From: Candidatus Heimdallarchaeota archaeon B3_Heim
GTDB taxonomy: Archaea > Asgardarchaeota > Heimdallarchaeia > Hodarchaeales > Hodarchaeaceae
Direction of reading: 5' to 3'
DNA: 32,000 nt
NCBI GenBank assembly: GCA_003144275.1
Contig: NJBF01000037.1
Coordinates: 1 to 32,000 of the forward strand
Shown: in pieces, positions 1 to 23,408 of the stretch
Layout of the letters: each line of letters starts with the position of its first letter
How positions within the stretch are numbered: the first letter of the stretch is position 1
Made by a program: the position numbers and the translations under genes
Notes under the pieces: model-generated
What the model was told of the DNA's origin: nothing
Databases searched by the model: none
Seen by the model: only the letters and a program-made list of their open reading frames with translations

Positions 1-126
1 CCAGATCCCCAAGTAGTCCCAATGGAAAGCACTCCTTCTCTGGTTGCTCCCCTGCCGGATAGCGGATGTGTGACTCATCCTGTCCAGAACTAGTTTTTAA
101 CTAGTTGTCTGACAAATTTAGTCATG
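1..126 (+). mobile_element. Right-hand part of the ~360-bp CATG-flanked element (copy A), truncated by the window start
   Basis: Positions 10-126 align without gaps to 19381-19497 with 10 substitutions in 117 nt. Ends TTGTCTGACAAA-TTTAGT-CATG (CATG at 123-126). Confidence 0.92.
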
Positions 127-257
127 AAAAAAGTACCAAGATATTTCCTAGGATTCTAAAACCTGCGAAATTCATTCACGACCCAATAGTACGAATGGTC
201 AAATTCCCATTTTGCTTCTACTTTCTACATCCCTTGTGGAATTTCATCCATTATGAT

Positions 258-18954: not shown

Positions 18955-19626
18955 TTATTTCAGTGAATTTTTTCTTGCTTTTATGAGATACCAAAATTGA
19001 TTGGTAATTACTATCTCTGGAGTAAATCCCACTTTGGCTAATAACGTTGAAACTACGTCTGCTGTCCGATCGTTAGTAACACGGCGTTTACCGTAGGCTG
19101 TTTCAATAGCTTTACCGCTAGGTGTTATAACATGATCATTTTTGTCCGATAATTCCATAGTGTTCATATTCGCTGACCTCTCTCTCTTTCTCTTACAAAC
19201 TTAAAAGGCGTCCCGCCCGTACTTCATCAACGCCGAGGTGATGACAAAAAAATTTACTTAGCTCCTAGGTCATATTCCCTTGTAACTTCGTTAGACGAGT
19301 TACCCGTCAAAGGCAAGAGAAGAATGATCCAGACTGGTCGAAAAGTATTGGTGTTTGGGATGTCGCCAGAAGATCTGATGCAAGTAGTCCCAATGGAAAG
19401 CAGTAATTCTCTTGTTGCTAACCTGCCGGATAGTGGATGTGTGACTCATCCTGTCCAGAACTATTTTTCAAATAGTTGTCTGACAAATTTAGTCATGGGG
19501 TTTCGCTTCATCAATTTCAGATTGGAGTTTATCGATAGCAGTTGCTTTTTTTTTCCCAATTTGGGCAATTATCCCCTCACCCCCCCCCAACATCCAGTAT
19601 AGATCCACTAGGGATTTCTTGAACAT
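18955..19626 (-). pseudogene. Small hypothetical gene (up to ~102 aa) split by element copy B
   Basis: Removing 19135-19497 joins ...EIDEAKPH to VITPSGKAIETAYG... in frame (CCC CAT GTT ATA). With the element present the frame stops at CAT GAC TAA. Start uncertain: ATG 19626, ATG 19593, or ATA/ATT after GGTGAG. Confidence 0.7.
19131..19497 (+). mobile_element. Complete 367-bp non-autonomous element (copy B, CATG to CATG)
   Basis: CATG at 19131-19134 and 19494-19497. Sub-terminal inverted repeats TTTGTCCGATAA (19141-19152) and TTGTCTGACAAA (19476-19487), each 6 bp inside CATG. About 95% identical to the reverse complement of 22165-22527. No transposase ORF. Confidence 0.93.
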
Positions 19627-19827: not shown

Positions 19828-20031
19828 TTATTTTTCGGCTGCTAATTTGACATCATTCTCTTTTACGGTTTTTCGTCCATTGTGACGTGCAATTTCAACT
19901 GAATATTTGGCTAAGTTCATACCATAGTCAGTTAAGATCTCATTCAAGCGGTTAATTGCGCCAGCAGATACTCTAAAAGCGCCTGCGGTTCGAATGAGTT
20001 TTTCTACACGTGCTCGTGCAAATCCAGTCAT
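19828..20031 (-). CDS. Archaeal histone (HMf-like)
   Basis: FARARVEKLIRTAGAFRVSAGA...AKYSVEIARHNGRKTVKENDVKLA histone fold. ATG at 20031 follows GGTGA; the track uses GTG at 20040. Confidence 0.95.
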   Translation of the reverse strand: MTGFARARVEKLIRTAGAFRVSAGAINRLNEILTDYGMNLAKYSVEIARHNGRKTVKENDVKLAAEK

Positions 20032-20376: not shown

Positions 20377-22598
20377 TTATACTCTCTTTCTTCTCGAGAG
20401 AATAGGAACTGAGATAATGACTCCCATGATGCTGATAAACTCCCATCCAGGTGAGAGACTTGGAATGGTGTTATTATCAGTTGTCTCACCAGTGAATGAC
20501 TCCATAAGCTCAAATTTGAAGATTGATATTTCAGAGCCATTAGTAGAAATGGAACCAGATATTAATTCAAGCTTTTCAAGTACACCAGTTTGTCTATTCC
20601 ACTGAAATTCGAGAACTCCGTCATCAGAAGGTTGAGTTTCATTATAATTCCATGTTAGTCGATAATAATCACTTTCTTCAATTAAATAAGTATTATCGAA
20701 CATTTTGAAGTTGGATAGATTTCCATAAATTGGGAGAAAAAGGAAGTTATTAATTCCGTTTCCTAGATAATCATCTGTATTTTTATGTATTTCAACTTCT
20801 ATACCCCATTCAACAAATTCAAACATTATCAGTTTGAGTTGATCTCCCTGAGCTAAAGATAGCGGGATATTTTCTTCTGTGTTTTTATTACGAAACCATT
20901 CTGTTAAATCAACTTCAGCTGATGCACCACTATATTCAGTCAAACTATAGATGAAAGTGTCACCAACTGAAATTGAAAAGTCCTCTTGAGTAAAGCTATC
21001 ATCAGGTTTTTCATCGATTTTTGGTGGATAAAATCCCTTTCTAATCCAAATATTATCCCAAAAAACTAAGGTTTCAGTGTTAATTTCTTGGTTATCAAAA
21101 CCAAAGCCAATATTTCCACATTTAAAGACGTTAAAATCATCATTTGTGAAAATTATATAGGATTCTAGCTCTTCTTCTTGAAGAAATACCTGAGTTATTT
21201 GTTTGTCACTTTCTACAGCAACCGCTATGATTAAACGCCCCCATGTTAGTTGTGATTCCATTGGCATGGAATAAAAAGTAGATTTTTCGCCTACCTCATT
21301 TTGAGCTCCAAACTCAAGAACATTTCTCTGATAGCTATAGCGAACATACTGAACGTCTGCACCACTGTTGAATCGCCATCCAAGTAACAATATATCTCCA
21401 TTTGCAATGTGAATATCATAATCAACCTCAATGGTGTAACTGTACAAGTCTTCATAAGTTTCCAAACCAGATGTTGTTAACCAACCACTTTCTGAAGAAA
21501 CATTATTGAAATAATATCCACGCAACCATTCATTCTCAATATCCCAATTTCCTTCTGGTCCTCCATACCAGACATAAGGATCAAGATTATAGCTGGAAAA
21601 GTCATCATAGTAAATAGTTTCATCAGTTGGGTGGTCTGGAGGCGTGTGATATCCTGTATATACACTAATATTGTCAAATCGTGCAGAAGAGTTATAATAT
21701 AACCCAAAACCGATATCCTCTAAATTAGGAACATTCATCATCATACTTGAGATAACTGGTTCTCCATTTACCCAGAGATCAAGTTGTCCACCAGCTACAG
21801 CCATATGTACAACGGCCCATTTGTCCGTTGGAAATTGATAGTCAAAATCATATAAACTTCCATAAGAATCAATATAGTGAGAGTATCCCGATGTTGATCC
21901 TAATTCCATTACTGCATATCCAGAGTAATAGTTGAAAATGAAATGAAACTGTTCTTCTCCATACCCTGACAACAAATTTACATCAAAGATTACTGTATAT
22001 TCACTCATATTGAAGATCGTATCGTCTAATACTATATCATCCCACATTTCATTTGTACTAATGCCATTAAGACTATTATCAAGAAAATCACATGCACCGT
22101 TCATAACAGTCCAGTATCCATTATCTACTTCAAAATCTTGGAAATATACAAGATCATCAGGAGCCATGACTAAATTTGTCAGACAACTATTTGAAAAATA
22201 GTTCTGGACAGGATGAGTCACACATCCACTATCCGGCAGGTTAGCAACAAGAGAATCATTGCTTTCCATTGGGATTACTTGCATCAGATCTTCTGGCGAC
22301 ATCCCAAACACCAATACTTTTCGACCAGTCTGGGTCATTCTTCTCTTGCCTTTGACGGGTAACTCGTCTAACGAAGTTACAAGGGAATATGACCTAAAAG
22401 CTAAGTAAATTTTTTTGTCATCACCTCGGCGTTGATGAAGTACGGGCGGGACACCTTTTAAGTTTGTAAGGGAGAGAGAGGTCAGCGAATATGAGAAATA
22501 TGAAATTGTCGGACAAAAATGATCATGGCTTGAGGAATAGTTGTTATTAACATCGGTAAAAAGAGAAGGATTAAAAGCATTTTTTTCTGATTTTTCAT
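20377..22598 (-). pseudogene. Secreted surface glycoprotein (two lectin/LamG-like domains plus PGW-TM-basic CTERM anchor), interrupted by element copy C after the signal peptide
   Basis: ATG 22598 (GGAGG upstream) encodes MKNQKKMLLILLFLPMLITTIPQA. Removing the element plus one CATG gives ...PQA-MAPDDLVYFQDF..., 620 aa in total. C-terminus SPGWEFISIMGVIISVPILSRRKRV. Confidence 0.85.
22165..22527 (-). mobile_element. Complete 363-bp non-autonomous element (copy C, CATG to CATG)
   Basis: CATG at 22165-22168 and 22524-22527. Reverse complement of copy B with about 13 substitutions and a 4-bp indel in a CT-rich tract. Both sub-terminal TTGTC-N-GACAA palindromes are perfect. Confidence 0.93.
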
Positions 22599-22757
22599 TT
22601 TTTTGAGATCCTCCTTCTGAAAATTATATAATAATAGAACCTTCTTCATACAAAAGTACCTAGTGAATTTACTCGTTTGTAAGGCTATTAAAATTTGTAA
22701 ATGGTCAGTATGATCAATTCGAAAGATAGTTGAAACACATAAAATCGAGAAAGAGAT

Positions 22758-23408
22758 ATGCAAATTTACTTGATTAGACACGGAGAAAGTACAGGTAACA
22801 AAGAAAAAGCTTTTCAGGGATGGAATAACGTTCATTTAAGTGAACAGGGAAAAATCCAGGCTAAAAAATTGGCTGATTATCTTTTCGGGGAAAAAATTAA
22901 CCTAAGGATAATATTTTCTAGCCCTCTCATTCGAGCAATGGAAACTGCAGAACCATTAACGATTTGTTCAACTAGTCCTGATATAATTACAGTTGATGGA
23001 TTTAAATCGATTAATGTCGGTGAATGGGGAGGAATTTTGATATCAAGGGTGAAAGAGGATTTTCCAAAGGAGTACAATATTTGGAAGCATTCACCAACAA
23101 AATTCCGTTTTCCGAAAGGGGAATCCTTAACTGATGTTCACAACCGCTCCCAAGCTTCTCTTATACATATCTTGCATAAATATATTGATTTTGGTGGAAA
23201 TATCGCAATAGTTTCACATATGATTACTATCAAAGCGTTAGCATTGTGGATGCTTGGGAAAAATCTAGGAAACATCTGGAAAAAAGAATATACAGTGCCT
23301 AATACTGGTATAATGGTTTTTAAAGTGGAAAAGGAAGAATCGACCGATTTCAGTTTCCAGCGCGTTGAAATAAATAATCCTATACCACATTTAGAGTCTA
23401 CAATCTAG
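22758..23408 (+). CDS. Histidine phosphatase (phosphoglycerate mutase) family protein
   Basis: IYLIRHGES, SSPLIRAMETA, FPKGESL and IVSH motifs. Confidence 0.9.
   Translation: MQIYLIRHGESTGNKEKAFQGWNNVHLSEQGKIQAKKLADYLFGEKINLRIIFSSPLIRAMETAEPLTICSTSPDIITVDGFKSINVGEWGGILISRVKEDFPKEYNIWKHSPTKFRFPKGESLTDVHNRSQASLIHILHKYIDFGGNIAIVSHMITIKALALWMLGKNLGNIWKKEYTVPNTGIMVFKVEKEESTDFSFQRVEINNPIPHLESTI

Follow-up and report, generated by a model that had tools for sequence, protein, structure and literature searches.

The first 126 bases of the window (the whole 32,000-nucleotide stretch analysed here) very probably form the right end of an insertion sequence whose only gene is tnpB, from a Hodarchaeales-type Asgard archaeon. 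In this reading the last codons of tnpB are overlapped by the scaffold of a guide RNA (omegaRNA or reRNA) of about 118 nt. A previous sequence-only reading of this segment had described it as a copy of a structured "CATG element", which we would assign to the omegaRNA/right-end module of a TnpB rather than to a new RNA family. What looked like an anonymous structured repeat could in this way be annotated as the guide-RNA module of a TnpB family with many copies in some Hodarchaeales-type Asgard genomes.

Three related copies in the window

Copy A (window 10-126) matches copy B (19381-19497) at 91% of positions without a gap, and it matches copy C at 22165-22281 on the opposite strand. By direct count the 117 nt hold 10 substitutions between A and B, as had been stated, 11 between A and C and 3 between B and C. 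The earlier account of the individual changes is borne out as well. Positions 93 and 101 of copy A are G and C where B has U and A, a double change from U-A to G-C in the terminal hairpin. Positions 34 and 42 are C and G where B has A and U, a double change from A-U to C-G in the first stem (stem 1, the AGCA...UGCU stem of that reading), in which two other, apical pairs are lost, one at A 32 and one at A 35. The differences at A 49, 50, 63 and 98 fall on unpaired positions, and A 63 is the U/C site within GGAUAG(U/C)GGAUG that had been placed in a bulge. Four of the ten A/B changes make up two compensatory pairs. Taken alone this is only suggestive, and the larger alignments described below turn the signal solid.

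Table 1. Features of copy A and of the related copies, with positions in the window.
Feature	Position	Strand	Remarks
Last 30 tnpB codons and TAG stop (91-93)	1..93	+	Reads PDPQVVPMESTPSLVAPLPDSGCVTHPVQN*; gene truncated where the contig begins
Right-end module of about 118 nt, putative omegaRNA-type scaffold	10..126	+	Common to tnpB-bearing and gene-less copies; 141 bits with covariance model R1
Stem 1, 24-35 with 41-52, internal loop 26-27/49-50	24..52	+	Double changes at all ten pairs
Core hairpin, GGAUG (64-68)/CAUCC (76-80) with loop UGUGACU (69-75)	64..80	+	Invariant in the family
Terminal hairpin, AACUAGUU-UUU-AACUAGUU	88..106	+	tnpB stop codon in the 5' arm
Right terminus, TTGTCTGACAA box followed by ATTTAGTCATG	105..126	+	Mirrors the left end CATGATCA(A/T)TTTTGTCYGACAA
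Predicted 3' pseudoknot partner AGUCAU (+ G) of loop 69-75	120..126	+	98.6% of cells paired in the family
Flank	127..159	+	Last 10 codons and stop of the membrane-protein gene interrupted by copy A
Copy B, gene-less miniature element	19131..19498	+	368 bases including both flanking CATG
92-aa ORF, not a gene	19324..19602	+	Leftover tnpB frame running from the right end of copy B into the flank
Copy C, miniature element	22164..22527	-	Sense insertion in a secreted-protein gene

Several of the host genes in the window are split by insertions. Copy C splits a secreted-protein gene (20377-22835, minus strand), and it is positioned between the signal peptide (MKNQKKMLLILLFLPMLITTIPQA, 22835 down to 22528) and the mature part, which has about 590 aa (22163 down to 20377). 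Removing copy C together with one CATG restores the reading ...PQA-M-APDD..., and no Pfam family was found for the protein. Copy B lies antisense within a small ORF of about 90 aa, which it splits into 18955-19134 and 19495-19593 (minus strand), with MLGGGEGIIAQIGKKKATAIDKLQSEIDEAKPH and VITPSGKAIETAYGKRRV... on the two sides. A 67-aa ORF with an archaeal histone fold (MTGFARARVEKLIRTAGAFRVS...) is located between copies B and C at 19828-20031 on the minus strand. As copy C is inserted in sense orientation in a gene, a group I intron or IStron was also considered and rejected: no intron model matches, and both the antisense orientation of copy B and the ends speak against it.

A TnpB family and its gene-less derivatives

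We searched the assembly (3.95 Mb, 36% GC, 94% complete) with BLAST and iterated nhmmer. About 25 copies of an element of about 365 nt like B and C were detected, and about 10 further copies consist of the last 118 nt or so only, each of them at the 3' end of an ORF of 417-458 aa or at a contig edge. Moreover, a covariance model finds the module at 37 places in the assembly, so that the high genomic copy number proposed earlier holds. There are at least five intact tnpB copies besides fragments at contig ends; the ORFs on contigs C61, C69, C44, C57 and C8 of this genome (G000) are intact and followed or overlapped by the module, and the same arrangement is found in relatives.

The ORFs of 417-458 aa match the Pfam families OrfB_IS605 and Cas12f1-like TNB (PF01385 and PF07282), and they are homologous to the solved structures of ISDra2 TnpB and of Cas12f in the PDB. 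The sequence contains the motifs GIDLG, IETL and NADYNAA as well as a pair of CxxC motifs. As read from its sequence, the associated protein is a TnpB with the RuvC triad and a zinc ribbon.

The short element combines the left end, a fragment coding for RuvC-I and the last 118 nt or so; in copy B these parts are the left end, a tnpB fragment and the right-end module at 19381-19498. Homology between full and miniature copies begins at the equivalent of window base 10 and ends at CATG. Copies B and C are best read as internally deleted, gene-less derivatives of the MITE or PATE-like kind, being gene-less elements of about 365 nt with both parent ends, present in about 25 copies and polymorphic for insertion. 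Two miniature subfamilies are internally 96-98% and 98-100% identical, and older copies are 72-89% identical.

With the covariance model, the module was found in 8 of the 24 genomes of the order, all of which belong to one genus. These genomes carry 37, 43, 19, 11 and 6 copies and, in three cases, a single one. Such a patchy distribution is typical of a mobile element, and together with the structure of the copies it bears on whether the repeat might be an independent structured non-coding RNA or cis-regulatory "CATG element" unrelated to transposons. The covarying structure and the many copies would agree with this, but every copy either is a tnpB 3' end or belongs to an element delimited by the same pair of ends, the copies interrupt genes in either orientation, and their number ranges from 0 to 43 among genomes of one genus. 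We consider an origin unrelated to transposons very improbable.

The contig start

Base 1 of the window is also base 1 of its contig (C86). In a tblastn search with the 417-aa TnpB of contig C61, window bases 10-96 match residues 389-417. The translation of copy A ends with ...QVVPMESTPSLVAPLPDSGCVTHPVQN, followed by TAG, and its tnpB frame is open from base 1. Furthermore, the bases ahead of CAAGTAG are like those of tnpB-bearing copies and unlike those of the miniature copies. For these reasons copy A most likely represents the end of a full, tnpB-bearing copy that is cut by the contig start and whose left part was not found in the assembly. The sequence-only reading had counted copy A as the third copy of the short CATG element, which it probably is not, since it reads as the truncated end of the tnpB-bearing parent.

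The same reading had noted that the TAG falls in the frame of an ORF at 19324, and this is correct: the TAG at 91-93 is in frame with 19324-19602, which shares its frame with the TnpB tail. It had taken the TAG as a stop introduced into a frame that the ORF track calls a gene. If copy A is the end of a full copy, the TAG would disrupt no gene and would be one of several stop positions of tnpB, and the "gene" called at 19324 in the ORF track is the vestigial tnpB frame of copy B running into the flank. No Pfam family was found for this ORF, and annotators should be warned that ORFs of this kind are relics.

Another contig of the assembly, C41, begins with the identical 126 bases and continues with a different flank after CATG. 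Since C86 and C41 share their first 126 bases and then diverge, the assembler broke at near-identical insertion sequences. The number of intact tnpB copies is underestimated in an assembly broken at near-identical tnpB copies.

Evidence for a conserved RNA fold

We aligned 31 right ends of this genome with MAFFT (alignment A1) and tested a structure made up of stem 1, the core hairpin, the terminal hairpin and the pairing between the core loop and the terminus. In A1, 91.3% of the cells were paired against 80.2% after shuffling, 125 cells against 49 showed double changes, and the covariation score was 0.304 against 0.128. None of 500 shuffles reached the observed values for paired cells, double changes or score. 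Sliding the 3' partners by one to three columns lowered pairing to 32-43% (32-45% for the slid controls overall). As the relatedness of the copies inflates the shuffle control, we ran the test again on an independent alignment (A4) of 29 copies taken from seven further genomes of the genus. Here 19 pairs showed double changes against 11.9 after shuffling, a number reached by 0 of 500 shuffles, and pairing collapsed likewise in the slid controls. A search across the genome and an alignment of the copies had been proposed as a check; the covariation is strong in the 31 copies of this genome and is replicated in the 29 from the congeners.

Example counts for pairs of stem 1 are GC:18 and AU:10, AU:18 and CG:10, and CG:12 and AU:9. 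In the terminal hairpin double changes occur at five of the eight pairs. Among the minority cells G-U exceeds A-C by about 3:1 (47:14 and 52:18), and on this ground the fold is assigned to the tnpB-sense strand.

Conservation of the segment could also come from the C-terminal peptide of TnpB, with pairing as a by-product. The tnpB-bearing copies are indeed coding up to the terminal hairpin, with a conserved ...LPDSGCVTHPVQN. The peptide over stem 1, however, differs freely among tnpB copies in which the pairs are kept (TESIHSHVAN, TVSSPSAVTH and MVPTPFMVSG), the position of the stop differs among copies, and the gene-less copies hold the same nucleotides and the same pairs. A peptide origin of the conservation is therefore hardly credible on these points, and the claim that selection acts on pairing rather than on protein holds for this segment: the stem covaries, the residues vary and the gene-less copies keep the fold.

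A search of the whole window against Rfam returned nothing at the gathering thresholds, and for three right ends searched with E-values up to 10 only chance matches to microRNAs and snoRNAs were obtained. Covariance model R1, built from the alignment, found nothing at about 55 distant cyanobacterial and Firmicutes TnpB loci. We regard the scaffold as lineage-specific. The covariation yields a usable secondary-structure model, which can serve for the annotation of guides, the prediction of target motifs (here CATG) and tests of compact nucleases.

Pairing of the core loop with the element terminus

The segment CCGGAUAGCGGAUGUGUGACUCAUCCUGUCCAG is nearly invariant within the family, so that covariation cannot decide how the core folds. 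RNAalifold prefers a different nesting of the core, and only GGAUG/CAUCC is unambiguous within it. RNAalifold proposes that UGUGACU pairs with the terminal AGUCAUG, and within the family this pairing shows only one-sided, wobble-preserving changes.

For a wider comparison we used more distant TnpBs of the class, from a protein family that is present in 51 of 83 genomes and includes the IS607-type unit of a congener described below. Distant TnpB lineages keep the motif GGAYAG-N-hairpin, with compensated changes in the core stem (GGCUG/CAGCC, GGGUG/CACCC, GGACG/CGUCC, GGAUAU/AUAUCC and GGGUA/UACCC). The loop of every lineage complements a six-base word at the point where similarity within the lineage ends. 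The loop and terminus are GUGACU/AGUCAU in the family of copy A and GUGAGU/ACUCAU, GUGAUU/AAUCAU and GUGCGU/ACGCAU in others; further lineages have GUGGUU/AACCAU, GUGGC/GCCAU and GGGUUA/UAACCU. In at least six lineages, a change in the loop GUGNNU goes with a matching change in the terminal ANNCAU. The chance of meeting a given six-base word in a stretch of 280 nt is about 7%, and six or more independent co-changes at this chance each give strong support to a predicted pseudoknot between the loop of the core hairpin and the last six bases of the element, a pairing that is new here. The pseudoknot would mark the border between scaffold and guide.

In ISDra2, a pseudoknot joins an upstream segment to the bases that immediately precede the guide, a feature reported to be conserved in Cas12 guide RNAs (PMC10097598), and the serine recombinase of IS607-type elements produces a double-stranded circular intermediate (PMC10690162). 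With this parallel and this intermediate in mind, it is natural to read the pairing at the level of RNA.

Boundaries and insertion sites

CATG precedes the left end in nearly all copies, and the left end starts with ATCA(A/T)TTTTGTCYGACAA. Right ends close with ...TTGTCTGACAAATTTAGTCAT, usually followed by G. Both ends form an imperfect inverted repeat of about 22 bp built on the TTGTCNGACAA palindrome: by manual count, 19 of 22 positions agree between the left end CATGATCAAATTTGTCTGACAA and the right end in reverse complement. The tnpB start follows the left end after about 120-140 nt. Beyond CAT(G) the flanks are unrelated among the copies and similarity stops.

On contig C142 of the congener G007, the site of copy A is present uninterrupted as ...TACATAAAAAAAGTT..., near the 3' end of a 186-aa ORF ending in ...QEYIKKVPRYFLVF. 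This empty site fixes the right boundary of the element to within CATG. The left flank of the empty site has no counterpart in the assembly of our genome, as searched by blastn and by tblastn with the interrupted protein. The junctions and the empty site are compatible both with CATG as a 4-bp duplication and with CATG as target plus element terminus. By analogy with known systems, the first 16-20 nt or so of the flank would serve as the guide in an omegaRNA read through from the element.

Besides the complete elements, there are "solo" palindromes of 31 bp at C8:64500-64530, C35:1463-1493 and C50:11148-11178 of this genome. They correspond to the left and right termini fused at the common TTGTCTGACAA box, and they look like either remnants of deletions between two 11-bp boxes or minimal elements.

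Search for a mobilising enzyme

The Y1 HUH transposase (PF01797) has no match in the 94%-complete assembly, and neither Cas1 nor an IS607-type serine recombinase was found in it. Among five congeners that carry the element, a Y1 match was detected in G006 only, and this match has an internal stop; G004, with 19 copies, has no match to the Y1 or the resolvase family. The ends are not asymmetric, as those of IS200/IS605 elements are, and no gene for a serine recombinase with an N-terminal HTH lies upstream of tnpB in the element, as in IS607. Because of the ends, which resemble inverted repeats, and because no Y1, Cas1 or IS607-type transposase was found, the element is placed outside the textbook IS200/IS605 group.

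The sole gene with a resolvase domain in the genome (L005, G000:C2:5532-7731) codes for 183 aa with a C-terminal HTH. Next to it, in tail-to-tail orientation and at a contig end, is a reverse-transcriptase-like ORF of 416 aa, and the two may be a pair of the retron or defence type.

In IS200/IS605 elements, subterminal hairpins are read by the Y1 TnpA on single-stranded DNA. The hairpins of the right end might correspondingly be DNA structures or transposase binding sites rather than parts of an RNA scaffold, which we consider unlikely. Both the terminal hairpin and the TTGTCNGACAA box have a subterminal position and a mirror image at the left end, the right-end model weakly matches left ends on the reverse strand, and the excess of G-U, read as G-T, would suit top-strand DNA equally well as RNA. 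On the other hand, the covarying stem 1 sits 75-100 nt inside the end, and a Y1 enzyme is missing from the genome and, apart from the match with the internal stop, from the five congeners. Moreover, the nearest transposase-linked relative of this TnpB is of the IS607 type, where the intermediate is a double-stranded circle (PMC10690162) and single-strand folds would have no obvious role, and the pairing of loop and terminus covaries in IS607-type-related lineages too. The terminal 40 nt may have a dual role.

Within the preferred reading, of a TnpB guide-RNA scaffold overlapping the right end, transcription would run past the right end into the flank, and the RNA would be trimmed to the scaffold and a flank-derived guide of about 16-20 nt. 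The complex of TnpB and RNA would then cut the empty site, where CATG lies beside the match to the guide, and recombination would restore the element. The steps of read-through, trimming and cutting are modelled on the ISDra2, Geobacillus and Clostridium systems. Copies B and C, being gene-less, would depend on TnpB supplied in trans, as PATE-like elements and standalone omegaRNAs do.

The mirrored ends, the CATG target and recent bursts of near-identical copies, in genomes in which no Y1, IS607-type serine recombinase or Cas1 was found, lead us to consider that these tnpB-only elements might be moved by a route so far unrecognised, either a new transposase or copying that depends on TnpB and the omegaRNA. 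We give this only a slim chance. If true, it would be particularly interesting because this archaeal lineage is the one closest to eukaryotes, whose Fanzor nucleases are carried by transposons that have inverted ends. The mobilising enzyme is the point of wider interest.

Relation to described systems

The closest likeness to a transposase-linked system is to the IS607 type. The TnpB of the present family shares 36% identity (E 2e-84) with its counterpart in a canonical unit of a congener, in which a 195-aa HTH-serine recombinase is followed by tnpB. The two have in common the GGAUAG-N-GGAUG...CAUCC core and the covarying pairing of loop and terminus. Another likeness concerns the target motif: in IS607 its end recurs in the last scaffold bases (PMC10690162), and the same holds for CATG in the family of copy A. 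Unlike in IS607 and CboIStron, no serine transposase was found in or beside any copy of the family; moreover, the target is CATG and not the G-rich TGGG of Cbo, and there is no intron. The IS607-type TnpB lineage also has a member in this genome, at L148 (G000:C33:14280-18215), which is frameshifted and shares 81% identity with that of the congener. Its core hairpin is mismatched (GGCUG/CAUCC), and no tnpA was found beside the frameshifted tnpB.

As in the IS1341 group and in PATEs, tnpB is the sole gene and gene-less derivatives keep the ends and the putative guide-RNA module in many copies. Gene-less elements with omegaRNAs (PATE-like) and standalone omegaRNAs acting in trans have been described (PMC10055086; PMC10691335). 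Unlike the IS1341-group members of IS200/IS605, the present element has imperfect inverted-repeat ends of about 22 bp instead of asymmetric ends with hairpins, and it resides in a genome without a match to a Y1 transposase.

In ISDra2 the omegaRNA overlaps the 3' end of tnpB together with the right end of the element, and its scaffold measures 116 nt (PMC10097598). The module described here is likewise encoded over the tnpB 3' end and the right end, is about 116-118 nt long and has several stems. Its guide-adjacent bases are predicted to pair upstream in a pseudoknot and its guide to be the flanking DNA. Here the predicted partner in the pseudoknot, a hairpin loop, lies about 50 nt upstream, compared with about 100 nt in ISDra2. 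The two further differ in that there is no sequence or Rfam similarity between them, in the presumed target motif (CATG compared with TTGAT) and in the element, which is without tnpA here. The features by which we place the module among the omegaRNAs are its location at the 3' end of tnpB, the TnpB protein, the covarying structure, the guide-adjacent pseudoknot and the variable flank as guide, all of them drawn from sequence comparison.
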